From contig NW_027266330.1 of the NCBI RefSeq assembly GCF_022045235.1, positions 22,196,001-22,260,000 of the forward strand: a DNA stretch of 64,000 nt. Direction: 5' to 3'. Positions 7,612-49,430 of this stretch are shown piece by piece (position 1 is the stretch's first letter; every line of letters starts with the position of its first letter). The notes below the pieces were generated by a model. The model ran no database searches, had not been told where the DNA came from, and saw only the letters and a list, made by a program, of their open reading frames with translations. A program made the position numbers and the translations under genes. Origin of the DNA: Haliotis cracherodii (Eukaryota).

Positions 7612-8466
7612 AAGTTTGCTAAAAGGGCTAAGAAATGCGAGTTTAAAGTAGGTGATGCAGTATACTACTATGACCCAACCACCTTGTTGGGAGTGTCAGC
7701 AAAACTAACCTCAAAATGGAAACCATACTACAGGATAGTCGAACAGATTTCACCAGTGAATTTTAGGATAAGACACCAGATGACAGGGAAGACAAAATTA
7801 GTACACGCAGAAAATATAAGGGAGGCACATCCCGAAAATACTTGGGATGAGGAAAGGGAACAGTACCAACCGATACTGAATAAGGTTAAGGTAGGGAAGG
7901 CTAGGAAGGAATTACCGGTAAAACTACGAACACAACCCATTAGGAGCGCAAGGTTAAATGTACCTAACACCGGAGGTAGCGGGGACCATGGGAAGGGGGG
8001 AACAGAGCCGCAAGGTTACAGCTCGGGGGAAGAGAGTATGGATACTGACCCCGAGGCAGATTACGACCAACCGGCAGGTGCAAACGATGCACTTGTACGA
8101 GGTCAAGGACCTCTTGACCCGAACGAGGCTGACGCTGAGGAAACAAGGGCCATAAATAATGACGGACTTAGTCTAGACAGTGACAGTTCGTACGACACAG
8201 AAGACGAGTTACCGCTTGTGCATTGGTCAGCCGTTTCCCCTACTGAGAAGACTATAATCGTGGATAGTCCAATGTCATGTAGGGAAGGTCTGAAAAGGAG
8301 GGTGGTCTTATCCCCTCAGGTAAGCGAACAGGAAAAAAGGGCCAGAATGGAGCAGAATTATTCAGACAGTGAAACCGAAATAGAGTTCGACGATTCGGAG
8401 GACGTTTCAGAAACGGAGGACTCTGGACTAACCAGTAAAGTGATGAGACTGATAGGCCTATGGTAA
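7612..8466 (+). pseudogene. pol remnant: integrase C-terminal (GPY/F-SH3-like) module plus long acidic tail
   Basis: KFAKRAKKCEFKVGDAVYYYDP...KLTSKWKPYYRIVEQISPVNFRI...VHAENI is typical of gypsy integrase C-termini; upstream pol is missing. Confidence 0.85.
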
Positions 8467-8752
8467 AGGTCCCAGATGGCAAACTCACGGCTAAATTCAG
8501 TAAGTTGAATGGTCGGAGTAGGTACCTGATTTACTTGAACGCAAGTAATCACGGTTCAGGGCGAAGTCAGGAACGTACTGTCACGCCAAGACAAGTAAAA
8601 CTACTGGTTATGTCTCTGCATACAAGTATAGTATGGCGGGATTAAGGGGGAACTATATATGTATCAGTCTATATAAAATGAATGACAGATGTGCTTGCAT
8701 ATATATATGACGTAATGAATGAATACAAACTTGTTTAAATTGTATGTTACAG

Positions 8753-10912
8753 ATGGTTCTAGGGTATCTCTCAGTGTTAAGCTTTATAAGGATAATTGTA
8801 TTAATGCAGTCAGTTCAACCAGGGAAAGCCTTAGCGGGAGTAAAATTTGTACATTTGAACGATGTGTACGCTTCTTATAGTACCTGGCTAATATCCTTCA
8901 CAGTGGATCTTCGACCCTATGACCGACAACTGAATAAGATTAACGACAATATTCATAGTTTTCGGAATACGGTAAATGCATTAAAAATACCGACGAGCAA
9001 ATACGAGGACGTGACTCAATACATACATAACAGCATTCGGGCCTTACTACAAAAAGAGAGCCAACAGATATTGGACAAATATAACAAGTTTAGAGTTTTG
9101 TATGGAAAACTACAAACTGTTACACGGACGCAAGGCGAACGAAAAAGACAGAAGAGAGCGCTACTGAATGTAGGCGGATTCCTGTCCCAACTATTCGGTA
9201 CAGCAAGTCAGGACGAGATGGATAGAGTTAGGCAGAACATAAATTCCTTAAGAAATAGCCAGGAAAAGGTTATTCATGTATTAGAACGCAGCCTGACTAT
9301 ATTAAACGTTACGAATACAGACATTCAGGTAAACCGAGCAAGTATAAATAGGCTGGGAAATCTTACGGTTACTATGGCTACCAAAACTTATGATTTATAC
9401 GACAAAATTAGTCTGGGAATGAAGCCAGTAATATCCTATACGGAAACCGTAGGTCAAATTCACGCCATGTTTCATTTGTTAAACAATGCAATTGACTCTC
9501 TGGGCGCGACTTTACAAGATATGTTTAATCAAGTGATAAGATGTATACAAGGACAGATATCTAGGACATTGATCCCTGAACATGCCCTACGTAAGGCTTT
9601 GTATACCCTGAAACGGAGGTGACCACCTACGCTAAGACTACCTTACGTGGTGAGCAAGGCTACCTTAAAATTGTATTATCAAAACTTCCAGACTACGCTT
9701 TTACCTGATCGAAATTCTTTCCATGTAATAGTGGCGATACCACTGCTACAAATTTCAGCGTACTTTGAATTATACAAAATAGTAATGGTACCTACTCCAA
9801 ATCTAGTCGGAAATACAACTTACACCTTCCAAACCGAGACTGACTTTTTGGCGATATCACCTGATAAAGGAAAATACACGCTATTAGACAAAGCTGAAGT
9901 TTCATCCTGTGCAAAACGGGATATAGCGTATTGTCCCCTGATTGCGGCTACTTATGTTACCACGATGGTTCCAGTGTGTATAACCTCGCTGTTTTTACAA
10001 AAATCAGATAAAACAAAGGAAAATTGTGAAATCAAAATTAAACCTCCGTCAGACACTCCTATTATTAAATCTTTAGCGAAAGGCAAATGGTTGGTATATA
10101 CTAAGGAAAGATTAGATATTGAATTAGCTTGTCTTCCTCCAAACTCCGATCTACCCACTACTATTTCAGTAGAGGCAGGGGCAAGTGTGATATCTATACC
10201 CATCCGATGCGCTGCACACTCGACTCATTTTAGCTTACCAGTTTATTTGAGGTCTGAGTCGCAATATAAAATTAGACCTAGTTTCCATAAGGAACTAAGT
10301 CTGGAAATGTATACAACGCTGTCGTCAAAATCCACTGCTAAATTAGTAACGACCACTAAGGGACCTACACAGTTTAAGATTCCACCGATAGAACCAGTTG
10401 ATAACAGTGATGAATTACTGGATGAACTGGATAGTGCAGACGAAGATATCGATTTTAATAATGGTGTTCAGTCTAATCCATCAAGTACCTTAACCATTTC
10501 GTATGCCGTTACCGGCGTATGTGTAGTGCTTCTAGTTATACTTATACTAATTATTATATATTCAAGGAGTAAGTGTAGAAGTAGGGAAATTGCTAGCAGA
10601 CAAAGTGATCATGAACGGGTAGAACTGAGAGAGAGAAACCCTAGAACCCACCGAACAGCTCAGGCAGAATTGATTCCTATGACCGAAACAACCACCACCA
10701 CACGATCCCAAGAAGTTTCGCCTAGACCAGCTCCTCGACTAGCAGGTCAGAAGAGAAAACATTCACCGTTTTATCGGGAGAAGATAAGCGAAGAACGAAC
10801 ATCCCGCGATGGAAACTCTGATGAGGAGACCATGCATCTTACATCGGCACCCCTTGATGCACGCAGACAAAACCCAAATAAAGGAACAGGTTCATTCCGA
10901 TTGGTGCAGTAA
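8753..10912 (+). CDS. env: Env-like class I fusion glycoprotein (baculovirus F/errantivirus env-like) with one in-frame TGA at 9620-9622
   Basis: Signal-like N-terminus; furin site RKRQKR then fusion-peptide-like ALLNVGGFLSQLFGTA; heptad region; Cys-rich ectodomain; TM YAVTGVCVVLLVILILIIIY. ORFs 8744-9622 and 9647-10912 share a frame (LKRR*PPTLRLP). Confidence 0.85.
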
Positions 10913-14708: not shown

Positions 14709-16263
14709 TACTACTCAAAATTTGATAGGATCGTAGATATTTTTCTTAATAAAAATACAAAATAACTGCATAACTGGCAATATTGTGTTCAAGTGAAATC
14801 AAAAACGTCTCCAACACACGTGCACGTGCATTTCATGCCATGGGAAATGCGTTTCACATCACAGTTCATGCTTTTGCTACCATTGCACGATTTCCAATCA
14901 GGCAACGGTGTCTGATTCATTCTGAAACTGTAAACTCAATTGAGTGTTTACACTACGTTTATCTACGCAATGCCCCCCTCAACGTGTAAGGCGTCGCCTG
15001 ACGACAGAACAACTGGGCAGATGTATTGGAATGCTTGATGCTGGCTATTCACAACGTGACGTTGCCAATGCACTAAACGTCAGCCAGAGCGTTGTAAGCA
15101 GGGCCTGGTCCCGACAGCAAAATTTTGGTACAGCAGCACACCGACATGGGGGTGGTCGTCAGAGGTCGACAACCCAACGCCAAGATCATTTTGTGGCTCT
15201 TCAGGCACGACGTCATCCCTTCTGGACAGCAACCAGCCTACGTAACGACCTCCTGAACGCCTCGGGGGTGAATGTGTCCACTCAGACGATACGGAATTGT
15301 CTTCACAATGCAGGTCTCTACTCGAGAAGGGCATGTGTCCGAATCCCCCTGACTGTTCGACACCGGCGGGAGCGATTGAAATGGGCTGAAGATCATGTCA
15401 CTTTGACACGGAACGATTGGGTTCCAGTTCTGTTCACCGATGAGTCCAGGTATTGTTTGGACTTTACAGACAGGAGGCAGCGGGTGTGGCGACGACAACG
15501 TGAACGTTTCCATGATGCCAACATCAGTGAACATGACCGTTATGGTGGTGGTTCCATCATGGTCTGGGGTGGAATCAACAGAGATGGAAGGACAGATCTT
15601 CATGTCCTGGAGAGAGGAACAATGACGGGGGTGAGGTACCGGGATGAGATCCTCGATGTGTACGTCAGACCCTACGCTGGTGCTGTTGGCCTGATGGATG
15701 ATAACGCCCGTCCTCATCGCGCCAGGGTGGTTGAGCAGTACCTTGAGCAGGAGACAATTGTCCGCATGGATTGGCCAGCGCGCTCGCCGGACTTGAACCC
15801 GATTGAGCATGTCTGGAACATGCTGCAGGTTGCCCTTTCACGCCGTAGAGCACAACCCACGACTTTGGCAGAGCTCGGACATGCCCTCGTGGAAGAGTGG
15901 AACAACCTTCCCATTGGGAACATCCGGGTGCTTATTGACAGCATATCTCGACGTTGTCAGGCCGTCATTGATGCAAGGGGAGGTCATACTCGATATTGAC
16001 ACTTCGTCGACTAAGTGTAATGATGGACTATCCCTCATAACTGTGTAATTCTTTCTCTTGTTTGCTGTTAACATTTTTTAATGAAATGCCTTTTGGTGTT
16101 TGCAGATTTCAAACATTCCATATTGATACAAGTTCATGCCGTTCATGAATTTTCATTCATAACATGATTAAACACGTTTCTGAGTCAGAGTCATGTCTTT
16201 TGTTATGTTTGTGGAAACTTACACACATATCACCTAGTGATCCTTATCAAATTTTGAGTAGTA
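14709..16263 (+). mobile_element. Full-length Tc1 (DD34E) DNA transposon
   Basis: TIRs TACTACTCAAAATTTGATA(A)GGATC at both ends, TA TSD, transposase inside. Confidence 0.95.
14970..15999 (+). pseudogene. Tc1 transposase, probably inactivated
   Basis: HTH region, FTDESR, MDDNARPH and SPDLNPIE with 34 residues between D and E. Likely ATG at 14970 is out of frame by one extra C in a C6 run; YAGAVG-LMDDN looks a few residues short. Confidence 0.9.
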
Positions 16264-18243: not shown

Positions 18244-18640
18244 GATCATACTGTGATAAATCAACGCTGAAGTGTTTACCTTTAAGAGACCCCGATATAT
18301 AAAGTGCCACTCTCGTCGAACATTTTGAAAAAAAGGTAACTGGGACATTAAGCTTCACAGTTATATAGAAACGTGTTTACACATAGATGCCCATTCTGTT
18401 TCAAGGGCTTACATTGTATGGAATACATACTTGTGTGTGCATGTACTTCGTGACTTGTCATGACTATGTCTGGAAACGTGTGCAATCAAATGTCACAATG
18501 TACTCTTGTTGCCCATTTTGCAGTGATATGCTTAAATAGGACACCACATTAACTATATGAATTATGTTCGCTACAGTCAAATACGAACAGACGATGAATG
18601 TGGTTATTGGCAAATCAATCTTCTTCTTTTTTACAGCGGA

Positions 18641-21090
18641 ATGAACACATTAGAAGTTTGCGGACATTGTGGAGAAAAATCCAAGGGTGTTCATCCATCA
18701 TGCACAGGGTATGTTTTCATTTAGATACAGTGAAACATCCTCAAATTACTGCCTCGTGTTTGGTTCGGGTGACAATTACTAAACGATTGTCATAAGAGGC
18801 AATCACTCAAATCGTGATAGNNNNNNNNNNNNNNNNNNNNNNNNNNNNNNNNNNNNNNNNNNNNNNNNNNNNNNNNNNNNNNNNNNNNNNNNNNNNNNNN
18901 NNNNNNNNNNNNNNNNNNNNNNNNNNNNNNNNNNNNNNNNNNNNNNNNNGTTAGTAACGCAACTTTTAACAGTATTCCGGTTATATCACGGTTATTATGC
19001 CCCCTGCAGTTACAGTTGAAATGTTCTTAGAAATAACAGTACCCCATTCAAAAGCACCAAACTAGCGACATGAATAATGATTTGTATATAGTGGGATCCA
19101 TTGCAATACAACCAAGTGTATAACGACACAAACCATATTATGCTGTCCTAATTAATTCAAAATGTGATGATTCATCACGTGAAACAAGTAATGTTGTGAT
19201 AGTCCCTAATTACTTTTATTGATGCTAACTAATGGTTTTAGAAGTTGACGGTTCTGTGTGGTTCTTTGCTTATAAACGAAATGATGTCAGTATGCCAAGA
19301 AAGTATGTGGATATTAACACGTTTGAAGAGACGTTTTTTACTACATGTCCTGGAAAGAATATTCAAGTGAACAAACAAATATATGAATAAACACCTCAGA
19401 AGCTCGACTGGGTCCTGATACTGACAGTGAGATGAAGTGAAATGAGGTTTAACGTCGCATTCATGACTGTTTCACTAAAATAGCGACATGCAACTTTGTG
19501 TGTGGTGGCTTGTGTTAGTACTACATTTATGCCAGATTTATAGAGCTAGCCCACTGAGATACCAACCTGCAGACTAACACTGACACCAACTTTTACACAA
19601 TATACTTATACCGAAATAATCAGTCCGTCCTTTATCTCCATGAGTGAGTGAGTGAGTCAGTATGGTTTTACGCCGCTTTTAACAATATTCCAGCAATATC
19701 TCTCGGGTTGGGAAATATTTATTCCTGCATCACAGCTAAGGGTTATGGGGCTGTCAGTGTGTACATTGATGCCGCAAGCACTGAATGAACTGGTGTCATC
19801 CTTATGTGACATTTGAAATTTACATATAAGCTAACATACCAAAATGAAAATCAAAACCTAAGTAATCATGTATAAGCAGAGAGTAAAATATGTTGCGAGA
19901 GATCTGGTCACGGCTTTTCTGTCTGTTTTAGGAACATTGAAAGATGCCATGCAGCCGTTAAGTTGTTCCAAGACACAATGGCTACCAGCCCGAACATACA
20001 ATTTATGGGAATTCACGTCCACTATCTGTATGGCATCGACAAGAAATTAACTGATCAAGACAAACTCGAGAAAAGGGAGAAACGGAATTTGAAGCTAGTC
20101 GAACTCACAAAGCATATCTCTGCGCTCAGAAATTCTAACGGTGGCTACTTACTTGTTCACATTGTAGGCTTAATTCCAAATGAAAATTACCTTGGTGCTT
20201 TTGACGAGTTTGCAGATGACACCCTGTACAAAATGATAGAAGATGGAAGAATGTTTGAAAGCGTGTATAAAAAAGCAAGGCTTAGCGAAGCTGAAGGATG
20301 CAATCAGTTCCATGATTTCATCAGTATTTTTGTTACAAAAGGCACAGAATTTTCAACAGCTGATTTTAAAACTAAAATATCTTTAGACTGGGGAATAATA
20401 ACCCCTTTACCTATCACAATGAAGAGGTTTGTTGTCGAACAAAACAATTGCAATCACATTCATCGTGAAGAAATTGATTTCAAATTCAATGGTGACTTTG
20501 AAACGATTTCACAATTGCAAGAGAAGCGTGATTTACAACTAAAGGGCTTCATGGAAAATAAACTTAAAGTTGACTGGAAGTTGTTGTCGGGCTATGAAAA
20601 AGCCCGAACAGTTTGGGATGATTTTCGACTGAGGGAGTATGTAAGTGCCTTCACCAAGAACAAGCGGGGTGGATCCTTCCTGCTAGGAATTGGGGAAAAA
20701 GAAAAAGGCAATGATGTGTACAAGTCAAAAGATCTCATTGTCCAAGGAGTGCCACTTGAGGACGAAAATGAGTTCAGAGGCTACCTCGAAGAACTTGTCC
20801 ATGACGAGAGCCTGGTGTGTGACTTTAAGGGGCACACTGATGTTAATTGGGACATAATGGAAGTAAAATGCACCCTTGTACCCCCTAGATATGTGCAATC
20901 AAGTACTACACGTGGTCCGCACACCACGCAGTACTACATTGTCGAGGTACTGGTTCGCCCAATCAATGGAGTAGCATTTTATGACAAAAAGGGGCCTGTA
21001 TCATGCCGAATCATCAACAACATTTGTACCCCTGTTGATGTGAAAACATGGTTCGAAAAGATTGCCATGCCCACACAATCATCGCTTTGA
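18641..21090 (+). CDS. Gene A: stand-alone Schlafen/AlbA_2-like nuclease-domain protein; exons 18641-18708 and 19932-21090
   Basis: ISALRNSNGGYLLV (Schlafen N-lobe xALLNSGGG), EKRDLQLKGF (ExxxxEFK equivalent), EYVSAFTKNKRGGSFLLGIGE (AlbA_2 YVSAFANxxGGxLxIGV). The phase-2 junction joins MNTLEVCGHCGE...CTG|NIERC in frame; exon 1 is conserved in the second copy. Confidence 0.85.
18821..18949. other. Assembly gap
   Basis: Run of N inside the gene A intron. Confidence 1.
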
Positions 21091-21987: not shown

Positions 21988-24171
21988 TCATGTGAAAGGA
22001 ACGTGATACAATCTGTCGTTTACCTCTCTGGATAAATTGCGCATTTAGGGCCAATCATGAATTCGAAACAATGATCACTTGTTTCTGAAATAGAGAATTG
22101 CGGTCCCTTAGATAACTGTGATATCCGCGTCCCCGAAGAAGTTCTTGCTAGATATGCTCTACTTCATTCGAAATAAAATGATTTGGGAACTTTGTGCCAT
22201 AACAATATGTGATTCTTTGTTATGGAATGATATATGTATGAAGATGTTGATCACCAATGCTTTATGTAGTAATAAAACTGACGCATTGCCATACGATGAG
22301 TTGAATTAATTTTTCACACAAATAAGAATGCATTCATGTATTCATCAACGCGTAGTCACTTATTACTTACTCGTGAAAAGATCACACGTTTAATAACAAT
22401 ACACCTATAGTACACATTGTGTTATGCCATCACGTGAAAACGGGACTCTTTTGGGGGGCAGCTGGTCATTGGAATTGGCACGGCGGTAGCACTGTGTACA
22501 TATACAATGTCTGCTCTACTCCCGACAGGAACTACCTTTTTTTAACAAAACACCAGTGATGCATAGCGAATACGACTGCATCACAAAAGTATATAATTGA
22601 CATATTTGACTTGAATATGCCAAGTCCGTGAGTTTGTGCAGTTCCCTGTGCAATCTCATTTAAATGAGAAGTTTCTCGCTTCTGCTTAGCAAAGATATGA
22701 GGACATACCATTACGGGTCACGTCAGAACGACCTTTCATCCGACCAGTCAGGGCGTCGCTTACCAGATCAGGAAAGTGAATTTAGAATGTGTTTCGTGAT
22801 CATGCAACTTCGAAACATTTAACACGGGTCATTCCGTAAGATAGTTACGGCTTTACGACTGACACCATAAAATACCAGGCCATCCATTAGCCATTCAAGA
22901 ATGTTCTTTTGTTCAGTTTTCAATTTGTAATCGAAAATTTGTCAAAATAGGTTTCGAAGCGTAGTCACCATTATGGAACCAGTGCCGAAAAGCTCAGGAA
23001 AGCTGCCCTTTGATTGGCTTAGTAGACTTCTTCTCAGTCATTCAAATGGTTGGCCAAAGATTGCGAAAGGTCGGACTCGTAATGGGATGTTCTCAGATAT
23101 ATGTTTGGCGGTAGCTCATGTTTATAAGATTGGCTACCTGTGTTATTTTCCAAATACATCTGAGCTAGAATATACGGACTGTCACCTTGTATTCTTGTAG
23201 TGCAAGCATCGTGGAATTATAAAGGTTCAGAGCATCACAAAGAAACAAAATATCATGTCGAAAGTTCATCACAGCATTAATCGTGGCGTCTACCTACGAC
23301 CTTGAACTTCGTACTGTAAATCAGAGTATCGCCCCTTGGACCAAGTGGATAGTCGTTAGAAATGTCGTCCTCATCTCAACCGACGCAATTTTGTGTCATG
23401 AATCCTTCAAGCTCCGAAATTCAGGTAGTGTATATTGTCGGTAATTACAACCAATTTGATAGCAACATACCATCTGCTAACTCGTATGAAATGACATAGC
23501 GACTCGATTGTCTCGCGGTCTCCCCTCACCTAAGCTGAACCGAGTGGGAAGCTCGATTTTCCGTTAGATGTTTCTAACTTGGTGATAGTCATTTCCTACA
23601 CTATGGGCCAAACTACATTAGGCGGTTGATGATACTCTATCTTCATACAACAGGCTGTCTATGGCCGTTGAAGATGATGGTGACATGAATAGATTCGAAA
23701 CTCACGAGGAAAGTACAACCGAATTGTTAGCCCACTTGAACGCGTTAAGACTTCCGCCTCTAACATTGTTAGTTTTTGGGAAAATGTTCTACTTGTGGTT
23801 CAATATCTTCAAGTTACATGGTATTAAACTGTACTTTTCACGTGAGTTCATAGTGAGCAATAAAATCAATAAAAGTGTGCTTCGTTCCACATAGGATCTA
23901 ACTTGGACAATCTAACAGGATTAATCTTTGCGCGGACATAAAGTGCATTGGTACATTGTGCATTTGAGATTGCTGATGAAATGTGGCTTAAGTAAAAGTT
24001 GATTGTCATGGGATTATGTTTTCAAGTAGAGAATAATCCTCTCATTCCTATCTGCTTACAAAAATCGAAACATACCTTCTTATGGCTTTGTACTGATAAT
24101 ATCATATTACCCCTAACCAGGTCTGAAATGGTCATGGTATACTAGTTTAATGGTTTTTTTTATATTTTCAG

Positions 24172-27100
24172 ATGTCACTTCTTGCAGGCGAAAAGCTTAA
24201 ACACATTGGTGAAAAACGTAAAGATGAAGAGGGGGAAATTGGACAAGTCAAGTAGGAACTATAGTATAGTATCTCTCTTATCTTAATGGTGACTACTTTA
24301 ATTACAGTAGAATCTGTGAGTGTTTGAGTTGGCATTTATCATCATCATCATCATCATCATCGTCGTCGTCGTCGTCATCACCACCACCACCACCACCATC
24401 ATTCGCCTCCTCCTCCTTATCAAAACATCAACATGTTATAAAGCAGATTTAATCGGTTTTCTTCTTCTTCAGGACAAGAAAATTTGAACCCCAAAACTAT
24501 GTATTGGCCCCATATGAGCTCAAGGTACGTTGTGTCCGCTTTTATATTCCAATCATAAAACCATTCACACCATAATAGTGAGCTTAGTCATATCAGTCGT
24601 TTTACATATTGAATAATGTTGTTGTGACCAAGGTTTAGTGGGACTGAAGGTGTGAATGTTTATTTTGTTGTTTACAACAATGTTGTATGTTATTTATATA
24701 CAGTGGCTGATACATACAACAAATGCTTTAATCATGTTACAAAAACATACACACATACACGTACATGCACACATATATTCGCGGAGAATGATTAATTTGA
24801 CTTTTTTCAGACTACCATCTGCCAAGAACAAAAGCACAAATTCGATATTCAAACAAAGGACTTTTTTCTACCATCACTACAACAGATGGGACACAGTATC
24901 AAAGACATACAAGAGTTCTACTGCCCTGGTGGTACGTTCTTTTTCTTCCATTTTCTACTACAAAATAATATTAGATCCGTAAAGATCCCGGGTAGAATAG
25001 ATTTTCAGCTACCCATGCTTGCCATAAATGCAATATTTTTCAAAAAAATTGTTTTAAGGGAAAAAAACCCAGTTGCGCTTCATGTGCGCTGCCCGGTTAC
25101 ACTTCATGGCAGGAATCAATACATCACTTAAAAGGATATGACGTGAACGGTGACGTCATCCATGTTAGCTTTCTGATTAACGCGATTCTCAGCTTGGATA
25201 GCCGCCCGCTCCAGACGTGTTTTGCCCTGTCTCATTTTAGCAACTTAAAACCACCTCCTCCCAAGCCTCCTCCTCTCTACTGATAAAAGGCAACTATGCT
25301 TGTCGTTAGAGGCGACTTACGGGATCGGCTGGTCAGGCTTCCTGACTTGGTTGATGCATGTCATCGTATCCCAATTGCGTGAATCGATGCTCATGATGTC
25401 AATCACTGGGTCGTCTGGTCAAGACTCGATTATTTACAGACCGCTGTCATATAGCTGGGATACTGCTGAGTGTGGAGTTAAACAACAAAAAAAACAAACA
25501 AATCTCATCATATTATTTTTGGGTTCTAAAGTACACGCAATCTCAAGATTGCAACATTTACGGTAAGAAATCAATATATATATATATCTCCAGATGTTTT
25601 ACATTATTATGCCATTCTGGCATGTCCCTCGACACAGACAAATATATAGAGCTACTGTATTTGATATAAATGCCACACACTGAGCCATAGTTACGCATGC
25701 GAATGCTGTTGTAAACTAGTTATATCATTATCATTAATGATTTATACTTACAGGTAAACTAAATGTTGTGCCTCAAAACCTACCCCTGAAACTCAAAAGG
25801 ATTACTGAGAAACTTCAACATTTGCTTCAAAAAGGAAAATATTCTATCATGTCACAAAACAGTTTACTGAAAGAAACTGCTGGCCCAACACTTCATCAAG
25901 GAACAGATGGCTTCGTCTTTATTGCACAAACATTGTGTTTTCCCTTAAATATTGCGTGCAGTGAATTACCATCTGATATTCACTGCGATATTGTACTGAT
26001 GTTACCTTCTCAACCAGCATTTGTACTGACTTTAGTGGAAAAGGACACACCAGAAGCAAGGAAATACAACGTCAGTGTTGCTAGAGGGGTGACAACCTCC
26101 CTCAATAAGTTCATTGATGATGACTTTTCAGCAGTGTTTGGCGTCGTGTGCATGTCTCATCTAGACTCCAGAGACACATTCCAGTCCCATTTAAAGACAC
26201 TTGTAGAATCATGTAGCAAGTTTGTTACGCTTGAATCCCTTTATATGCCAAAAAGGAAATATTTTAAACTCATCACTTCCTTTTGGGCTGCGGTTGCAAA
26301 GGTAGAGCCTGGAGATCAGTTTCCCGACACTAACGTGATTAATTTCTTAACAAGAGAACAGTGCACAGCGTTGGTAGAAAATATGAATTGCAACTATGTT
26401 TTTGTGTCAACACTTCCAAAAAGTGGTGGGACTACTCTGATGTTGGAAGTGGCCAGAAGACTTCAGAATTTTCTACCAACGCATCTCATTGTCAAATCAG
26501 AGAACGACATTTCCAAATACAGGTTAGCAGATCATTTCTCTTTTCACAGTAATGTTAAAACGAATGTACTTTTTATAGTCATTATCATGTGTGTCTGGGT
26601 GTGAGTGTGTGGGAGGTGTGTGTACGTGCGATGCGTTCGTGCGCACGTGCGTGATCGTATGTGTGTGTCTCGTTGTATGTCTAAGTGTTCGCCTCTCTCT
26701 CTCAACTTACATCTTACTTGACTTTAGGAAATGCAACTCACGTGGAATTATCCAGTCTTATGAATAATAATGTCATTTTGTTACTTTTAAAAATCAATTC
26801 TTCCCCATGACTAACAACAAACTAACATGTTTTCATGTACCTTGACAACTGAATCTTGTCACAACGAAAGAGTATTTGTGTGAGGAATGTGTATTGAACA
26901 AAGTGACTTTCCACGTAATCACCATCAAATTAGCATCAAATGTGAACACACTTATTTAGTTTCAGAGGAGATTACCAATTGTGTGAAGAACAAACAGTTG
27001 ATGAACTGACTTATTAATAGCTGTGTGTATTATATTTGCAAGTGTTTTGACATTTCATTAAACGTCAAGACAACCCTTTTCAACAAAAAAGAAAGTTTGG

Positions 27101-30100
27101 TGAGAACTATTGGGTTTTAATACTGCTCCTCATATAGTAGATTTGTTTCAGAAATCTATGTGAGAGGGTTTCAACGACCTTGCAGCCTGAATGTCCTGCA
27201 AATATGACACTGGAATGGAACAGCAGCATACGTAGATGCGAGACAGCAGTTGTCGCAGAAACAATTCTGCCTTTCTACGAGGGCCAAGACCAAACCATGA
27301 AAATCATATGGACCTTCTGTTCAGGTATATTTAAAAAAAATATTTCGCAGAATTAAGAGCTGTATCAGGCTGATTGAGAAGTCTTTGTAGAAAACAAAAC
27401 AAATGTTCCAAAAATTAACCATGTTCTTCAGATTAACAAAAATACAAACTTGAAACAAAGGGATCATTTTGCATAAAATTATGCCTCATCACATTGTGTC
27501 ATATCTTAAACGATTGACTGATAGCTAATTTCACAACTGTGGCATGTTAAAGTTTAAGGAAAGCAGTAGCACCTGCATTTGCCATGCACTGTGATTGCAA
27601 ACTTCAAATAGAAAATGTGTGCTCAAGCATTGCCTATATAGATATATCACATCTGGAATATTTATGATGGTCTCTTTCTACATACCACAGAGTTCTTCAG
27701 ACCACGAATTATGGATGACATACTTGCCCTCTTTGAATCACATCGGCATGTACTTCTTGTCGGATCAGCAGGAGAAGGAAAGACAGTCATAGGCATTCTT
27801 CTTCTGGAACACTACAGATCAAAAGGAATACGAGTAGTACATGCGACCAGTGCCGTGGAAATGAAAAGCGCTATTCAAAACTCTGAAGAAACGTTTATCC
27901 TTTGTGATGACGTGTTTGGGAGGTTCAGGTGCACATTTACGTTAACACCCGATTTGGAAAACATATTCAGTCGGCTTCAAACTAAGACAAACATTAAAAC
28001 GTTATTCACTAGCAGGTGTGATGTTTACGCAGACGCACTTCCGCGTTTAGGGAAGCTTCAGTCACATTTTGCAGGTTCCAGAGAAGTGAATCTTACCGAG
28101 AAAACTCTGACAAGTGAGAAGACCAAAATGTTAGACAGATACTTAGAAGCCACAAACAGGCATATTTCTGATGCTGAAAAACACAGCATAATCTGGAAGC
28201 GAAATATTCATGGATTTGCACACTCATGTCAGTTGTTCGTCACTTTAGGAAAGGAAAACACAAACGCCGAACAGTTCTTTGACAATCCGTTGTATTTTGC
28301 TGGAGAAAGAATTCAACATCTTTTGAAGAATTCGATCATGAAGTGCCTCCTCTATCTCTTAACAGCATTCAAAGGCACACTTGATTTGAAAGATCCTACC
28401 ATTGATTCAAATGAAAAAAGACACATGGTAATGAGTTATGTCAGTTACAGAGAAACATCTATGTCTGAGGTTCTTACCGCTGCCGCAGAGGAACCATACT
28501 TGTTTACAACAGAAGGTTGTGTAAAGTTTTCTCATCCATCCTTTCTTGAAGTAACGTCAAACATCATAGCAGAATCTGACACTGAATTCATCATAAAGTA
28601 TGGACCCCTTGAACTATTTGAAAAGGCAAGAAATATGAGAGAACAAAAGTACAGCATCAGTTTGTCTGAAGACAGTCATTTCATCAAACTAGCAGAACGG
28701 TTTTCACAGGAAATAAAACTTGGTTTATTTGAAAGCTGCTGCCCACATCAACTGCTACAAAGTCAAAGCTTTGTTGATCAAGTTATGTGTCAACTTCCCA
28801 CATCCACAGATGACTTAGCTGTCGAGAAACTATTGTACTGGGCATCTAGCAATGGTTCAGATGTGATGATGAAAGCGTTGTTGCAGAAGTACCCAATGAC
28901 ACGGGAAATGTATCACCATGCAGTTGTGGGCTGCAGCAGATGGGGCAATCATTCTGCACTGGAGTTCATTGTTACCAGTTTAAAACTGACTTCTCGGGAC
29001 ATTGGGGAAATCACTGAAGAAGGGTTGCCATGCCTAATTATAGCAGCCAATCAGAATCACATTGAAGTGTGTAAAGTTCTGATCAAACACCAAGTGGATG
29101 TATACACCACAGATCCACGCATGGGGGCAAATGCACTTCATTGGGCTGCTGCAGCTGGTCACCTTGAGGTTGTGAATCTGCTGTCAAACCACATATCAAT
29201 TGAACGTGAAAGCAATGGGGGAGTTACGCCTTTGTTTGTGGCTGCAGAAAATGGGCACATGAAAGTATTTAAACTTTTACTTGAGAAGGGTGCTGCTATG
29301 AATACACAAATTAAAAGCAGAATTGTGTCATTAACAAATCCAAGAAATGAAGGCCGTGCATTAGTTAAGCAGCTTAATGTATCAGATGAAGGTTTTACTC
29401 CTCTTCATGTGGCAAGTTATGAAGGACAATATGACATTGTAAACCTCCTGATAACTGAAGGAGCTGACGTCAACTTGAAGGCTGAATTGGGACCTCCTGT
29501 AGCTTTTGCTGCAAAAGCAAATGAATCGTGTATCTTTCGTCTGTTCCTAAACGATGTGAGAGTAGATTTCAGTGACGTTATCACTGCAGCATATGAATAT
29601 GGCCGTACTGAAATGCTGAAAGAGGTTGTTCTCCATAAACGGTCACAAGCTAGCGCTATTGCAATAGCAACCTTGCAGGGAGATCTGGAGACTGTGAAGC
29701 ATTTGCTTGAGGAAAATGAAAAAAGTTTAACTTCAAATGTCGAAGGATATACACTTCTCCATCTAGCAGCAACTTTAAGCCATGAAGACATTGTGGACGA
29801 GCTCCTACAAAGAAGGATCGAAGTGAACAAATCTTCTGAAGGTGGATTCACAGCTTTACATGGGGCATCTATTACTGGCGCATCTTCAGTCGTTGAAAAG
29901 CTCATCAATAGGGGAGCAGATGTTGCCCGACTTGCCAATGGTTTCAGTCCTCTTCACTTTGCATCAATGTATGGACAGACAAATGTAGCAAGGGTTTTGA
30001 TACAACATCAAGCAGATATCCAGATGAAAGGTTATCATCAGTGGAGCCCACTTCATGTGGCAAGTATCCACAACCAACCCGACATTGTGCTGCTTTTACT

Positions 30101-30698
30101 GGAACACAATGCTGACATAGAAGCTTTGTCAGAAGACCTGTCAACACCCCTTGTATTTGCTACATATTTGAACAATATGAACATAGCTGATATATTGTTA
30201 GCTCATGGGGCTGACTTACATCCAAGAGGCATGTCATATCACCCTCTTCTAGGTATTGCTCTCCTGGGGCATCCTGAGGCTGCGAACAATTTATTTCAGA
30301 GAGGTGCAAGGGTAGATCATGTAAGTGCAGTTGGAGTAAGCGCCTTACATGGAGCTGCCTACATGGGGGCAATGGATGTCCTAAAATGTCTTCTTGAGAA
30401 TCATGCAAATCCAAACCTGAAACTGTTCGAAGGGATATCACCAAAGGAGAAATCTATCATAACAAAGCATGTGGAGAAATGGTGCAAAAGCACACCTGGA
30501 AAGGATATCAATTTGAGAAGATATGATGGTGGATCTGCGCTCCATGTGGCTGTCGATATGGGTTACACCGACATGGTACGACTTTTGTTAAAATCAGACG
30601 CTGATCGCAATCTCAGGAACTTGAAAAATGAAACTGCTGTGGATATTGCGAGAGAGAAGGAGTTCAGTGACATTGTGAGACTCTTAGAATCGTCCTAG
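24172..30698 (+). CDS. Gene B: Schlafen-linker/pseudo-helicase + STAND-like NTPase + ankyrin repeats (~1400 aa); exons 24172-24251, 24473-24524, 24811-24931, 25754-26522, 27152-27324, 27691-30698
   Basis: All introns GT-AG with consistent phases (2,0,1,2,1); total 4203 nt, open. HCDIVLMLPSQPAFVLTL...ARKY resembles the Schlafen linker; NFLTREQ...VFVSTLPKSGGTTLM resembles the Schlafen helicase Walker A region; LLVGSAGEGKT and FILCDDVFG are Walker A/B of an nSTAND3-like NTPase; many GxTPLHxA ankyrin repeats. Same exon structure in the second copy. Confidence 0.88.
24338..24420. repeat. Compound trinucleotide microsatellite (CAT)n(CGT)n(CAC)n in intron 1 of gene B
   Basis: Visible directly. Confidence 0.9.
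24976..25500 (+). mobile_element. SINE family 2 copy split by an unrelated ~250 bp insertion, in intron 3 of gene B
   Basis: Head at 24976-25026 and remainder at about 25281-25500; absent from the second gene copy. Confidence 0.75.
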
Positions 30699-31213
30699 AG
30701 TAACTGTGACTGCCATCAAATGAATAATGGATAAAGCAACATTAGCACTGGCCAACTGAACATAAAGCTGTCATGATATTTGGCAGCTCTGCTTTCAGAA
30801 TCGATGAGCAAAAGTGACACATTCAATGTAACTAGCTGGTGTTTTAATGACTGATAAAAAGCTGCCTTTATATGTTGCAGCATTGCTTTAAGAATCCACC
30901 AGCCTAGGTTACACAGTCAATACACAAATAGGTAGAGTTTTACCATGGGTAAATTATTTGTGACAAGGTGGTATGCCATTTGTACAGTTGAGTATATTAT
31001 AAACTCTTATCCTGTAAATATATAAACATATTTCTGTTTCCCACCATGTTGTAATTTTACAGGCCTCATTCAATTGTAACTGCTTAAGCCAGACATATCC
31101 TGTCATGTAAAGTATTTCAAAGTGTAATGAAAGATGTGACCACTGTACATCATCATAGGTACATACGTTCGTGGGGTTGCCACTTTTCATGTCAGGATAC
31201 TTTTAATCTTATA

Positions 31214-36941: not shown

Positions 36942-39900
36942 CTAGGACGATTCTAAGAGTCTCACAATGTCACTGAACTCCTTCTCTCTCGCAATATCCA
37001 CAGCAGTTTCATTGTTCAAGTTCCTGAGATTGCGATCAGCGTCTGAATTCAACAAAAGCCGCACCATGTCGGTGTAACCCATATCGACAGCCACATGGAG
37101 CGCAGATCCACCATCATATCTTCTCAAATTGATATCCTTCCCAGGTGTGCTTTTGCACCATTTCTCCACATGCTTCGTTATGATAGATTTCTGCTTTGGT
37201 GATATCCCTTCAAACAGTTTCAGGTTTGGATTTGCATGATTCTCAAGAAGACATTTTAGGACATCCATTGCCCCCATGTAGGCAGCTCCATGTAAGGCGC
37301 TTACTCCAACTGCACTTACATGATTTACCCTTGCACCTCTCTGAAATAAATTGTTCGCAGCCTCAGGATGCCCCAGGAGAGCAACACCTAGAAGAGGGTG
37401 ATATGACATGCCTCTTGGATGTAAGTCAGCTCCATGAGCTAACAATATATCTACTATCTTCATATTGTTCAGATATGAAGCAAATAGAAGGGGTGTTGAG
37501 AGATCTTCTGATAAAGCTTCTACGTTGGCATTGTGTTTCAGTAAAAGCAGCACAATGTCGGGTTGGTTGTGGATACTTGCCACATGAAGTGGGCTCCACT
37601 GATGATAACCTTTCATCTTGATATCTGCTTGATGTTGTATCAAAACCCTTGCTACATTTGCCTGTCCATACATTGATGCAAAGTGAAGAGGACTGAAACC
37701 ATTCGCAAGCTGGTCAACATCTGCCCCCCTACTGATGAGCTTTTCAACGACTGAAGAGGCGCCAGTAATAGATGACCCATGTAAGGCTGTGAATCCGCCT
37801 TCAGAAGATTTGTTCACTTCGATCCTTCTTTGTAGGAGCTCGTCCACAATGTCTTCATGGTTTAAAATTGCTGCTAGATGGAGAAGTGTATATCCTTCGA
37901 CATTTGAGGTTAAACTTTTCTCATTGTCCTCAAGCAATTGCTTCACAGTTTCCAGCTCTCCCTGCAATGTTGCTATTATAATAGCATTAGTTTCTGACCG
38001 TTTATGGAGAACAACCTCTTTCAGCATTTCAGTACGGCCATATTCATATGCTGCAGTGATAACGTCACTGAAATCTACTCTCACATCATTTAGGAACAGC
38101 TGAAAGATACACAATTCATTTGCTTTTGCAGCAAAAGCTACAGGAGGTCCCAATTCAGCCTTCAAGTTGACGTCAGCTCCTTCAGTTATCAGAAGGTTTA
38201 CAATGTCATAATTTCCTTCATAACTTGCCACATGAAGAGGAGTAAAACCTTCATCTGATACATTAAGCTGCTTAACCAATGCACGACCTTCGTTTCTGGG
38301 ATTTGTTAATGACACAATTCTGCTTTTAATTTGTTTATTCATAGCAGCACCCTTCTCAAGCAAAAGTTTAAACACTTTCATGTGCCCATTTTCTGCAGCC
38401 ACAAACAAAGGCGTAACTCCCCCATTGCTTTCACGTTCAATTGATATGTGGTTTGACAGCAGATTCACAACTGCAAGGTGACCAGCTGCAGCAGCCCAAT
38501 GAAGTGCATTTGCCCCCATGCGTGGATCTGGGGTGTATACATCCACTTGGTGTTTGATCAGAACTTTACACACTTCAATGTGATTCTGATTGGCTGCTAT
38601 AATTAGGCATGGCAACCCTTCTTCAGTGATTTCCCCAATGTCCCGTGAAGTCAGTTTCAAACTGGTAACAATGAACTCCAGTGCAGAATGATTGCCCCAT
38701 CTGCTGCAGCCCACAACTGCATGGTGATACATTTCCCGTGTCATTGGGTACTTCTGCAACAACGCTTTCATCATCACATCTGAACCATTGCTAGATGCCC
38801 AGTACAATAGTTTCTCGACAGCTAAGTCATCTGTGGATGTTGGGAGTCGACACATAACTTGATCAACAAAGCTTTGAATTCGTAGCAGTTGATGTGGGCA
38901 GCAGCTTTCAAATAAACCAAGTTTTATTTCCTGTGAAAACCGTTCTGCTAGTATAATGAAATGACTGTCTTCAGAAATACTGATGCTGTATTTTTCTTCT
39001 CTCATATTTCTTGCCTTTTCAAATAGTTCAAGGGGTCCATACTTTATGATGAACTCAGTGTCAGATGCTGCTATGATGTTTGATGATACTTCAAGAAAGG
39101 ATGGATGAGAAAACTTTACACAACCTTCTGTTGTAAACAGGTATGGATCCTCTGCAGCAGCGGTGAAAACCTCAGACATAGATGTTTCCCTCAAGCTGAA
39201 TTGACTCATTACCATCCGCCGTTTTTCATTTGAATCACTGGAAGGATCTTTCAAATCAAGTGTGCCTTTGAATGCTGTTAAGAGATAGAGGAGGCACTTC
39301 ATGGTCGAATTCTTCAAAAGATGTTGAATACTTTCTCCAGCAAAAAACAACGGATTGTCAAAGAACTGTTCGGCGTTTGTGTTCTCCTTTCCTAAAGTGA
39401 CGAACAACTGACATGAGTGTGCAAATCCATGAATATTTCGCTTCCAGATTATGCTGTGTTTTTCTTCATCAGAAATATGCCTGTTTGTGGCTTCTAAGTA
39501 TCTGTCTAACATTTTAGTCTTCTCACTTGTCACAGTTTTCTCGGTAAGATTCACTTCCCTGGAACCTGCAAAATGTGACTGAAGCTTCCCTAAACGCAAG
39601 AGTGCGTCTGCGTAAACATCACATCTGCTAGTGAATAACGTTTTAATGTTTGTCTTAGTTTGGAGCCGACTGAATATGTTTTCCAAATCGGGTGTTAACG
39701 TAAATGTGCACCTGAACCTCCCAAACACGTCATCACAAAGGATAAACGTTTCTTCAGAGTTTTGAATAGCGCTTTCCATCTCCACGGCACTGGTCGCATG
39801 TACTACTCGTATTCCTTTTGATCTGTAGTGTTCCAGAAGAAGAATGCCTATGACTGTCTTTCCTTCACCTGCTGATCCGAGAAGAAGTACATGGCGATGT

Positions 39901-42696
39901 GTTCCAAAGAGGACAAGTATGTCATCCATAATTCGTGGTCTGATGAACTCTGTGGTATATAGAAAGTGACCATAAGAAACCCCAGATGTGACATTTGTAT
40001 ATGTAGGCAATGACTGAATTTGAAGTTACATATTTGAGAAAGCAAATCAGAGAAATAACACCGTCCTTACATACCCAGGTTTAAAATCTACTGTCCGTGA
40101 CAAATGCAGGTGCTACTGCTTTATCTGTACTAGAACGCGCTGTAGTCTTTGGTGAAATTAGCTTTCAAATTGAAACTCTCTTAAGACTGAACGTGTATAT
40201 GTTGTCATGCGGCAAGGAAAAATCGTTTACAAAACGATACCTTTCTTTTATATTTGTGATTTTGCTAATCAGAAGTGCATGTTTATTTATTGGTACAATT
40301 GTGCTGCAAATATTTTTTTTCGAGTTGCATTGTGAAACATTTCTGAAACATACCTGAACAGAAGGTCCATGTGATTTTGTTGGTTTTAATTGTTTCTGTG
40401 ACAGCTGCTTTTTCGCACCATTCAACTGTCATATTGGCAGGACATTCAGGATGCAAGGTCGTTGTAACACTCTCACATACTTTTCTGAAACAAATGTACG
40501 ATATAANNNNNNNNNNNNNNNNNNNNNNNNNNNNNNNNNNNNNNNNNNNNNNNNNNNNNNNNNNNNNNNNNNNNNNNNNNNNNNNNNNNNNNNNNNNNNN
40601 NNNNNNNNNNNNNNNNNNNNNNNNNNNNNNNNNNNNNCTACATAGACTGTACGTTCATTTTAACATTACTGTAAAAAAAAAGAAATGATCTGCTAACCTG
40701 TGTTTGAAAATGTCATTCTCTGATTTGACAATGAGATGAGTTGGTAGAAAATTCTGAAGTCTTCTGGCCACTTCCAACATCAGAGTAGTCCCACCACTTT
40801 TTGGAAGGGTTGACACAAAAACATAGTTGAAATTCATATTTTCTACCAACACTGTGCACTGTTCTCTTGTTAAGAAATTAATCACGTCAGTGTCGGGAAA
40901 CTGATCTCCAGGCTCTACCTTTGCAACCACAGCCCAAAAGGAAGTGATAACTTTAAAATATTTCCTTTCTGACATATAAAGGGAGTCAAGCGTAACAAAC
41001 TTGCTACATGATTCTACAAGTGTCTTTAAATGAGACTGCAATGTATCATGGGAGTCTAGATGGGACATGCACACAACACCAAACACTGCTGAAAAGTCAT
41101 CATCAATGAACTTATTGAGGGAGGTTGTCACCCCTCTAGCAACACTGACGTTGTATTTCCTTGCTTCTGGTGTGTCCTTATCCACTAAAGTCAGTACAAA
41201 TGCTGGTTGAGAAGGTAACATCAGGACAATATCGCAGTGAATATCAGATGGTAATTCCCTGCATGGGATATTTAAGGGAAAACACAAGGTCTGTGCAATG
41301 AAGATGAAACCCTCTGTTCCTTGATGAAGTGTTGGTTCTAGCAAACTATTTTGTGACATGACATGATATTTGCCTTTTTGAAGAAACAGTTGAAGTTTCT
41401 CAGTGATCCTTTTAAGATTGGTAGGTAGGATGTTAGGTACAACGTTGAGTTTACCTGTAAGTATAAATAATAAAATATAACCATTTTACAATAACCCTCA
41501 GGACTAAGGCTTTACATGTGACATCTACATCAGATACATTAGCTCTATATTTATGTGTCTGTGTCGAGGGACATGCCACATTGCCTTCATAATATAATAT
41601 ATATGTATACATATATGGTGATAACTTACTGTGCATTTTGCAATCCGGAGATTGCAGGAGAATATGAATCAAAAACATTTTTTTTAAATTATATGCCTCG
41701 AAGAAAAAGAGAATATACCTCGAGGGGAGTAGAACTCTTGTATGTCGTGAATACTGTCTCCTATCTGTTGTAGTGTTGGTAGAAAAAAGTCTCTTGTTTG
41801 AATGGTGAATTTGTGATTTTGGTCCGGGAAGATTCTTGTCTGAAAACATGTACAATTAATCATTTACACCAATACATGCGTGCAGTAACGTGTACACATT
41901 TGTGAAAATGTTTATGTGGCACAAACAAAGCTTTCATAACAACTCCTGATAAACTTTATCAGTGTGTTTCAGTAACGACCAGTATTGATGTCACCAACAG
42001 ACTACACATTCACAACATCAGTTACACTAAAAACTGGCCACAACACCGCAACTACATGTGTAAAACAACTGATATAATTAAGCACACTATAAGGTATGAA
42101 TGATATTTTTGATCAGAGTATCCTAAGGATCAAAACCTACCTTAAGCTCAGTTGGGGCCAATGCAAAGTTTTGGGTGTCAAATTTTCTTGTCCTGAAGAA
42201 GAAGAAATAAGGGTCCAATATAGGAAACCATAATCTATGTCATGACAATATTGATGTTTTGATGATGATCATGATGCTGATGATGACAGGTTACATCGAT
42301 GTAATATATAGGCTGTCATTGTGATTTGCAGAAAAGGAAATATATTTCCAGCAGGTCATGTCTACTAGTGACTGAGTTAAGCATAACATAACTGCATTAC
42401 CGCAACCGTGTTTTAAGTGAAAGATGAAGAAAATTGACACAGGATGTATTTTACATCCCTTGTGGTTAAGCTCAAAACATTTCAGACACTCCTCTGCGTG
42501 CTCTTTTCACTGCTGTTTAAAGCATCGTTACAATTCATCTTTAGCATTTACAGATTCGCCTGTGATTAAAATAGACACCATTATGATAAGAGAGATGTGT
42601 ATACAATGATTCATACTTGACTTGTCCAATTTCCCCCTCTCCGTCTTTACGTTTTTCACCAATGTGTTTAAGTTTTTCGCCTGTAAGGAGTGACAT
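36942..42696 (-). CDS. Gene B' (inverted paralog of B, ~1382 aa); exons 42696-42617, 42192-42141, 41839-41719, 41454-40698, 40484-40354, 39949-36942
   Basis: Same six exons and phases as B; indels are multiples of 3 (12 nt in exon 4, 42 nt in exon 5); total 4149 nt, open. Confidence 0.88.
40507..40637. other. Assembly gap
   Basis: Run of N in intron 4 of B'. Confidence 1.
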
Positions 42697-47789: not shown

Positions 47790-49399
47790 TCAAAACGATG
47801 TTTGTGTGGGCATGGCAATCTTTTCGAACCATGTTTTCACATCAACAGGGGTACAAATGTTGTTGATGATTCGGCATGATACAGGGCCATGTTTGTCATA
47901 AAATGCTACTCCTTTGATTGGGCGAACCAGTACCTCGACAATGTAGTACTGCCTGGTTTGCGAACCATGTGTAGTACTTGATTGCACATATTCAGAGGGT
48001 ACAAGGGTGCATTTTACGTTCATTATGTCCAACTTACGATCAGTGTGCCCCTTAAAGTCACACACCAGGCTCTCGTCATGGACAAGTTCTTTGAGGTAGC
48101 CTCTGAACTCATTTTCGTCCTCAAGTGGCACTCCTTGTACAATGAGATCTTTTGACTTATACACACCATTGCTCTTATCTTTTTCCCCAATTCCTAGCAG
48201 GAAGGATCCACCCTGCTTGTTCTTGGTGAAGGCACTGACATACTCCCTCAGTCGAAAATCATCCCAAACTGTTCGGGCTTTGTTATAGCCCGATAATGAC
48301 TTCCAGTCAACTCCAAGTTTATTTTCAATGAAGCCCTTTAGTTGTAAATCACGTTTCTCTTGCAATTGTGAAATCGTTTCAAAGTCACCATTAAATTTGA
48401 AATCAATTTCTTCATGGTGAATGGGATTCCAATTGTTTTGTTCGACAACAAACCTTTTCATTGTGATAGGTAAAGGGTTTATAATTTCCCAGTCTAAAGA
48501 TATTTTAGTTTTAAAATCAGCTGTTGAAAATTCTGTGCCTTTTGTAACAAAAATACTGATGAAATCATGGAACTGATTGCATCCTTCAGCCTCGCAAAGC
48601 CTTGCTTTCTTATACACGCTTTCAAACATTCTTCCATCTTCTATCATTTTGTAAAGGGTGTCATCTGCAAACTCGTCAAAAGCACCAATGTAATTTTCAT
48701 TTTGAGTTAAGCCTACAATGTGAACAAGTAAGTAGCCACCATTAGAATTTCTTAGCGCTGAGATATGCCTTGTGAGCTCGAAAAGCTTCAAACTCCGTTT
48801 CTTCTTTTTCTCGATTTTTTCTCGATCAGTTAAGTTCCTGTCGATGCCATACAGATAGCGGACGTGAATACCCATAAATTGTATGGGTGTGTCAGGCCCG
48901 CTGACTTGGTTATTACATGTCATCGTGTCCCAAATTCGTGGATCGATGCTCATGATGTTAATCATTGGATTGTCTGGTCCAGATTCGATTATTTACAGAC
49001 CGCCGTTACATAGCTGGAATATTGCTGACTGTTGTGTTAAACAACAAACAAACAAAGCGCTACAACAAATTGGCCGGAATAATTACATCAATAGAATATC
49101 ACATCTGATGCCCATTAACTCACACAAAAGAAATACTGGGTGATAGTAAATATAGAATATTGCAACTGTGTCACGGCAGCCTGCAAATATTCGAGTTTAA
49201 ACCTGCCAACGACTTGCTCTTATGGCAATCATTGAGTATTGTCACCCATGCTACCCCGAACCACACAGCAGGCAGAAAGTTATGGAGGTTTCTATGTATC
49301 TAAAAGAAAACATACATACTCTGTGCAAGCTAAATGGATATCCTTTTCAGTGGATTCAAGTTTCTCTCCACAATGTCTGCATACTTCCAAAGTATTCAT
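47790..49399 (-). CDS. Gene A' (inverted paralog of A); exon 49399-49320 and main exon about 48885-47790; native acceptor replaced by a SINE, possibly a pseudogene
   Basis: Main ORF is open and colinear with A from IQFMGIHV to MPTQTSF*; exon 1 MNTLEVCRHCGE...HLACT with phase-2 GT donor; homology breaks at about 48886 where a family 2 SINE begins. Confidence 0.75.
48890..49036 (+). mobile_element. SINE family 2, 5'-truncated, at the intron/exon junction of A'
   Basis: GTCAGGCCCGCTGACTTGG...GCTGGAATATTGCTG...(AAAC)n. Confidence 0.85.
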
Positions 49400-49430
49400 T
49401 CCTCTGTGAAAAAAAGATTGGATGTCCATT

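Follow-up and report, generated by a model that had tools for sequence, protein, structure and literature searches.

A divided Schlafen-like gene in the abalone Haliotis cracherodii: a separate nuclease-fold chain beside a linker-bearing STAND-ankyrin protein

Schlafen proteins of subgroup III, such as SLFN5 and SLFN11, carry a nuclease core, a linker and a two-lobed superfamily 1 (SF1) helicase in one chain. In SLFN5 the linker spans residues 337-552 and the C-terminal ATPase lobe 685-891, with the N-lobe anchored on the linker, which is described as of unknown function (PMC8789055). Human SLFN5 and SLFN11 are reported not to hydrolyze ATP in vitro (PMC8789055, PMC9482658, PMC11615386). A Schlafen-type nuclease is also tied to a STAND NTPase and a repeat sensor in SAMD9 and SAMD9L and in bacterial Avs9, which is composed of AlbA_2, SIR2, STAND and TPR (PMC12680541), and in prokaryotic Schlafen-sensor fusions one nuclease type is combined with many sensors (PMC13056530). 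Here, we describe a locus of Haliotis cracherodii (contig NW_027266330.1, positions 22,196,001 to 22,260,000; this whole stretch of 64,000 nucleotides is referred to as the window) at which a Schlafen gene is split at the boundary of core and linker, into a stop-terminated nuclease-fold chain and a second chain that joins the linker and a catalytically dead helicase lobe to a STAND domain. We give a probability of about 0.5 to the linker serving to dock the free nuclease chain onto this putative nSTAND3-ankyrin sensor.

The locus is similar to SLFN5 and SLFN11 in its core fold, linker fold, first helicase lobe and domain order. The linker fold (SWAVDL/GTPase-like) is present, with AQTLCF at the SWAVDL position in exon 5. 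Unlike subgroup III Schlafens, the core nuclease is a separate open reading frame (ORF), outside the linker polypeptide both in a spliced contig and in the protein P0001 introduced below. Furthermore, the second helicase lobe is absent, the first has lost the Walker A lysine and the Walker B DE (SGGT and VVAET in place of GK[ST] and DE), the active-site motif is E-x4-Q-x-K instead of E-x4-E-x-K, and the C-terminal tails are foreign. SAMD9 and Avs9 are single chains with TPR and no Schlafen linker (PMC12680541), whereas here a two-lobed core occupies its own ORF, apart from nSTAND3 and ankyrins; on P0001, Pfam gives nSTAND3 and ankyrins only, and no AlbA_2-SIR2-STAND-TPR chain. The prokaryotic fusions are covalent, whereas here the sensors sit on the linker and the nuclease is detached (PMC13056530). 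The closest proteins on the sensor side are nSTAND3-ankyrin NLR-like proteins (PF20720), of which the genome holds 52 relatives; these share the intact Walker A and B motifs and the ankyrin tail, but here the N-terminal slot is a Schlafen linker module. The features of the locus are as follows.

18637-18708 (+): shared upstream exon e0, 72 nt; its MNTLEVCGHC... frame reads on into the nuclease exon
19932-21090 (+): Schlafen core exon (AlbA_2, both lobes), stop-terminated; active-site motif E-x4-Q-x-K
23201-23424 (+): 5' exon used optionally by the linker-STAND transcript, with an MSSSSQPTQ start at position 23362 (RNA contig, P0020)
24172-24251 (+): coding exon 2 (MSLLAGEK...), P0001 model
24473-24524 (+): coding exon 3, P0001 model
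24811-24931 (+): coding exon 4, where the Schlafen linker begins (P0001 model, fold alignment)
25754-26522 (+): exon 5, Schlafen linker, anchor helix NFLTREQ and RecA-lobe strands 1-2; lysine-less Walker A at 26410-26436
27152-27324 (+): exon 6, RecA-lobe strands 3-5; Walker B degenerate (TAVVAET), phase-1 donor at the lobe boundary
27691-30698 (+): exon 7, nSTAND3 NTPase, helical region and ankyrin repeats; Walker A at 27762-27785, Walker B at 27903-27920
36942-42696 (-): inverted second linker-RecA1-nSTAND3-ankyrin gene (P0002), from comparison of the copies
42617-42696, 42141-42192, 41719-41839, 40698-41454, 40354-40484 and 36942-39949 (-): exons of P0002
47790-48923 (-): the other Schlafen core ORF of the window (P0039), adjoining a dispersed repeat at its 5' end
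49320-49403 (-): second copy of e0

The window thus holds two inverted copies of one cassette, with long blocks 86-90% identical. The exon-5 protein matches P0001 at 100% and P0002 at 88%, both listed by NCBI as uncharacterized proteins of H. cracherodii, with relatives in H. rufescens, H. rubra and H. asinina. P0001 is exactly reproduced by translating seven exons, namely the last 9 nt of e0 (18700-18708), which spliced to 24172 give its MHR start, and the six coding exons listed above, with intron phases 0, 2, 0, 1, 2 and 1. The terminal exon is 3008 nt long and follows a phase-1 intron, just as the original prediction for this locus had proposed from the DNA letters; the upstream nuclease exon and the two 5' exons had been overlooked. 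Since e0 bears an acceptor, it is not the first exon. In the second copy, a dispersed repeat (48881-49056, minus strand) covers the 5' end of the core exon and the P0039 model starts inside it; the H. rufescens relative P0040 retains the e0 start.

Judged by its predicted structure, the upstream ORF, a single exon 4.7 kb from the linker, is a complete two-lobed Schlafen core fold. Residues 1-365 of the model superpose on residues 11-351 of SLFN13 (5yd0) with Z 23.8, a root-mean-square deviation (rmsd) of 3.4 and 297 aligned residues, and the match to SAMD9 has Z 8.9. A phmmer search of the core against PDB was blank; a profile search did match. Among 24 cores, the active-site residues are retained in 22 (E), 24 (R), 24 (K) and 23 (E240). 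Two further core ORFs of the genome, L045 and L046, have a charged insertion of 50-85 residues in the N-lobe.

The second chain begins with a module that was predicted to be a dead Schlafen helicase stump. NFLTREQ (26341-26361) and TLPKSGGTT (26410-26436) lie in exon 5, and both are found again within 40698-41454 of the inverted copy. Profile alignment places VSTLPKSGGTTLML onto VHGLPGSGKTVLA of a full-length Schlafen with glycine at the lysine position (hhalign, probability 98.3). The Walker A lysine is missing from both copies, as had been read from the sequence; in the same alignment the Walker B is degenerate, TAVVAET versus KHIIVDE. As a single sequence, exon 5 finds SLFN5 (7ppj) by phmmer with E 0.0021. 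An AlphaFold model of P0001 residues 47-401, built on a 33-row alignment, has a predicted local distance difference test (pLDDT) score of 86.7 and ends in five strands with intervening helices. Residues 6-355 of this model align with residues 342-684 of SLFN5 (7ppj; Z 20.0, rmsd 3.5, 294 aligned), and the model also matches residues 362-703 of SLFN11 S753D (Z 16.2), with a Foldseek Schlafen match of E 1.2e-14. The best non-Schlafen match has Z 7.8. A Schlafen origin for the region is supported. Because the SLFN5 C-lobe starts at residue 685, the module is, on its model, a whole Schlafen linker plus a complete first RecA lobe ending at the lobe border. The claim that the helicase is cut off therefore needs amending: it does end about 90 residues after Walker A, but this is the natural end of the first lobe and not a break within a domain. 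Other searches were negative: Pfam gave nothing relevant on exon 5, the linker family PF21026 had no match on P0001, and a profile of abalone exon-5 sequences did not reach the PDB Schlafens.

Selection was assessed as the ratio of nonsynonymous to synonymous substitution rates (dN/dS) from pairwise counts. Between the window copies the ratio is 0.30 for the linker, 0.38 for the exon-5 part of the lobe, 0.29 for nSTAND3 and 0.29 for the ankyrins, and linker, STAND domain and ankyrins are under purifying selection between the copies; exon 6 has 1.23 (interval 0.39-4.63), with indels. The check proposed for exons 4 and 5, run on exon 5, gave values below 1 in 12 of 12 pairs; for the lobe part they are 0.09-0.26 in four deep paralog pairs and 0.80-0.89 in two close pairs. 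A complete folded lobe whose exon 5 is constrained in this way is not a decaying stump. Pseudogene decay was rejected, because in four species the frames are open and dN/dS stays below 1.

Evidence for transcription comes from contigs of sequencing runs guessed to be RNA, from which expression levels are not derivable. A contig of 5026 nt joins 23200-23424, 25753-26519, 27149-27321 and 27688-31200; the last three blocks, with the third followed to 30853, are gap-free in the contig's own coordinates, and the 243 bases left unplaced agree with exons 2-4, which total 253 nt here. In a second run, 26519 and 27688 are connected by 173 bases, the length of exon 6. In these contigs the linker-STAND gene is expressed as a spliced transcript, and the splice from exon 5 to 27691 by way of exon 6, on which the original prediction depended, is real. 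With the 23201 exon as its first piece, the 5026-nt contig carries no core sequence.

These contigs bear on the idea that the split is partly an effect of annotation, with minor splicing or read-through giving a single SAMD9-like core-linker-STAND-ankyrin chain. The exons do stand in the order of an intact Schlafen, one database model (P0109) is fused, and the L051 core ends in a strong donor (score 10.4). However, there is no GT between the last helix Trp codon of the window core and its stop; RNA contigs cross that stop into the 3' untranslated region, one of them reading on to 21717; the 5026-nt contig is core-free among the pieces listed; and the linker protein begins without a core in database models of four species. 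We consider such a hidden fusion very improbable. An arrangement with the core ORF as exon 1 of the STAND gene was likewise dropped, on account of the stop codon and the missing donor.

How the two products may be related is indicated by e0. Its end is the only ATG-CAY-Arg-GT site upstream of 24172, and it is itself upstream of the core. The core-only H. rufescens model P0040 begins with e0, as does the linker-STAND model P0022 of H. rubra, which then follows the frame of a direct join from e0 to 24172; the NCBI model of the window's core, P0038, takes a different first exon at 19232. Because database gene models start both products from the shared e0, the locus is likely one unit with two mutually exclusive products, the core exon being skipped in the STAND transcript. 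When e0 is part of the long product, its ATG starts an upstream ORF that is out of frame and 109 or 29 codons long; speculatively, this ORF might damp the sensor. In addition, the e0 peptide contains CxxC...HxxC, and a CxxC lies at the start of many core exons of paralogs, which suggests a possible zinc-binding N-terminal extension.

The pairing of core and linker extends across the genome, where there are at least 80 linker-exon matches; for cores, 110 of 117 matches were used, the other 7 being second pieces of the same ORFs. A core ORF lies less than 12 kb upstream on the same strand for 73 of 80 linker exons, and on the opposite strand for 0 of 80, with 66 distinct cores in these pairs by hand count. 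In 19 of 26 cores, including both window copies, no site from the last helix Trp to the stop scores 5 or more as a donor on a rough matrix, on which true donors here score 5.9-9.6. In a library search, the top hits have the linker within the first 200 residues, and it lies near residue 400 in only 5 of 85 hits; these five carry AlbA_2 by Pfam and comprise three named anemone or hagfish Schlafens, with the fused P0109 also among them. Seven of the 10 hits checked for taxon are from Haliotis. No longer, fused relatives of the core were found in a search that is weak by the tool's own note. Paralog coding starts, mapped for part of the list, fall between core and linker. Some relatives do without even the RecA lobe (P0094, P0098, P0102, P0103), leaving the linker as the constant part.

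It is rather unlikely, though a serious alternative, that the linker-RecA1 module is an autonomous N-terminal signaling or scaffolding domain, acting by self-association or by binding a host protein or nucleic acid, and that the core is a co-transcribed passenger that acts by itself, as subgroup I Schlafens do. The module is confidently folded on its own (the pLDDT given above), occurs as tandem pairs in the SPRY proteins P0006, P0008 and P0041, is better conserved in its exon-5 lobe part than in its linker in 8 of 12 pairs, and at three lysine-keeping linker loci has no core ORF in the 10-18 kb upstream. Yet on many contigs cores remain open, with their active-site residues, beside diverged linkers, and the relatives just named dispense with the lobe while retaining the linker.

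Docking of the nuclease chain is favored because the split falls at the non-covalent interface of core and linker, the linker is constant and the core is kept alongside. In SLFN5 the N-lobe of the core grips the linker (PMC8789055), and SLFN11 cleaves tRNA only as a dimer (PMC9482658, PMC8789055, PMC11615386). We propose that both products would arise from one promoter by way of e0, that the ankyrin repeats would sense a ligand and that the STAND domain would then oligomerize. Since SLFN11 cuts tRNA only as a dimer, clustering of the linkers would gather bound cores and could switch on cleavage of tRNA or rRNA, arresting translation. The RecA lobe likely persists because it caps the linker structurally, as it does in SLFN5, a role for which ATP would not be required. 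The adaptor role that was one of two suggestions made for the stump is supported as a role.

Several points weigh against this proposal. Binding of linker and core is a prediction; a complex model of core and module, run without alignments and with an uncertain partner fold, scored 0.01 and counts neither for nor against it. Of the core-contact motif YPxSY only half survives (TLESL here; among 17 sequences, S in 16 and L in 14), dN/dS of the core between the window copies is 0.62, and a shared promoter with block duplication could alone explain co-retention. The second catalytic Glu of E-x4-E-x-K is Gln in 22 of 24 cores and Glu in 2, and the genome's sole full-length Schlafen likewise carries Gln; in SLFN11, E214A abolishes activity (PMC9482658), so that the predicted ribonuclease (RNase) activity of the cores is uncertain. 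Finally, the shared e0 is drawn from gene models of three species and lies beyond the read-mapped stretch, a possible donor is present in 7 of the 26 cores, and one database model, P0109, runs an abalone-type core through the linker into an apolipoprotein-L domain.

The tail of the second chain is a predicted nSTAND3 NTPase. GSAGEGKT (27762-27785) and CDDVFG (27903-27920) are intact in the terminal exon, as originally noted, and Pfam nSTAND3 matches it with E 3e-18 (P0001 scores 66.6 bits against PF20720, cut-off 27.2); the domain is predicted to bind ATP and would oligomerize on contact with a ligand. Most of the 52 nSTAND3 matches have no linker match nearby. A single clade for the 12 linker-associated nSTAND3 domains was rejected by the approximately unbiased (AU) test, p 9.4e-5, on a quick tree with long branches made from 24 of the 52 matches and 8 proteins, one locus 19 kb from a linker having been dropped from the group after tree inspection. 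Given this result, STAND tails were likely gained more than once. A distant nSTAND3 ORF with an open frame of 1363 residues (L111, G000:C67:22359918-22360583) lies about 100 kb past the window.

The loss of the helicase appears to have preceded these gains. The lysine is lost in 42 of the 46 exons that reach Walker A (47 examined); of the four that keep it, one is the full-length Schlafen of contig C80 and three lie on C4, two of them loci with linker plus lobe and the third a linker that has a STAND exon downstream of it. In a quick, midpoint-rooted module tree (61 rows from 58 of 87 proteins, fragments excluded, with SH-aLRT support only), the window module is sister (SH-aLRT 98) to a mostly SPRY-ending clade that lacks the lysine and ends at the same strand, and tail-less relatives have also lost the lysine and the second lobe. 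On this tree, lysine loss is older than the STAND fusion. The full-length Schlafen has the same phase-2 intron after lobe strand 2, and a single last exon encodes the remainder of its lobe 1 together with the whole of lobe 2. From the tree and this gene structure, we infer that the last exon was first shortened at the lobe border and that tails were added afterwards. The proposal that exon shuffling replaced the helicase thus holds for the exon-scale joining of a STAND-ankyrin tail, but not as a one-step replacement, because the second lobe and lysine were already gone in the SPRY sister clade and in tail-less relatives.

That full-length gene (L087-L091, G000:C80:35420837-35430126, minus strand) is the only one found; it has intact GPPGGGKT and DEAQ motifs, a second lobe, the motif E-x4-Q-x-K and a core interrupted by an intron. 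A PF09848 search of the genome gave no match, although this gene is present. Two loci on contig C4, L067 and L069 (G000:C4:26.62 Mb and 26.72 Mb), encode a linker and a first lobe in which GKPGSGKT is intact. The roughly 17 kb upstream of them contains no core ORF, and they are possible intermediates; their relative P0079 ends at strand 5.

The tails are diverse. Among 48 hits scanned, Pfam identifies nSTAND3-ankyrin, SEA-ankyrin, RING/B-box, AIG1 GTPase, PH-SH2 and ApoL tails and, weakly, SPRY, CARD and NHL, with no family assigned in 18. Near-identical modules can bear unlike tails, such as STAND-ankyrin in P0058 versus AIG1 in P0059, or ankyrin in P0081 versus GTPase in P0085. A broader and more tentative reading, which we rate a little below even odds, is a combinatorial immune kit of about 66 or more loci, in which each unit would yield either a free Schlafen RNase or a linker-tagged sensor, the linker being a docking plug through which STAND-ankyrin, TRIM-like, GIMAP-like and SH2 sensors could fire the RNase in trans. 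Such a kit would be a convergent equivalent of SAMD9 and Avs9 in divided form.

This diversity also bears on the suggestion that the module is an integrated decoy, baiting a pathogen anti-Schlafen protein to trigger the STAND ATPase. In plant NLR integrated decoys, a host domain is fused to a STAND protein and catalytic loss is typical, and the abalone protein is similar in carrying a catalytically dead host domain; the genome also offers a genuine full-length Schlafen to mimic, and exon 6 is fast-evolving between the copies. However, unlike the plant proteins, no separate effector domain or helper is seen: the module itself occupies the effector slot at the N-terminus of the STAND protein, with no other effector there, and the window holds no helper-type partner, both copies being alike. 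Proteins with SPRY, RING/B-box, GTPase or PH-SH2 tails begin with this module as well, lysine loss precedes the STAND fusion, and dN/dS of exon 5 is below 1 in all 12 pairs. With no positive evidence for it here, we regard a decoy as improbable.

The remainder of the window includes mobile-element sequences on the plus strand. In a retroelement-like remnant at 7612-10912, an integrase C-terminal domain (PF22938) precedes an envelope-like Baculo_F region (PF12259), in two ORFs parted by a stop codon. A Tc1/mariner-type transposase occupies a full 351-residue frame at 14944-15999 (Pfam HTH_Tnp_Tc3_2, DDE_3), and a partial frame at 58652-59458 looks similar to this type. The end of a Cys/His-rich ORF at 182-547 resembles the C-terminus of a piggyBac transposase.

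Schlafen transcripts are up-regulated in infected mussel gills (PMC7772429). No report of split mollusc Schlafens was found in the literature searched, which included few subscription papers and no supplements, and the split Schlafen with varied tails looks like a larger, unreported pattern. A family that drops nuclease and helicase and keeps the linker beside a free core ORF, as in 73 of 80 cases, makes the model of the linker as a coupling domain testable. It would extend to animals the wiring of Schlafen nucleases to many sensors, for which most examples so far are bacterial, and suggests that farmed and endangered abalone possess a large immune gene family that is still unannotated.

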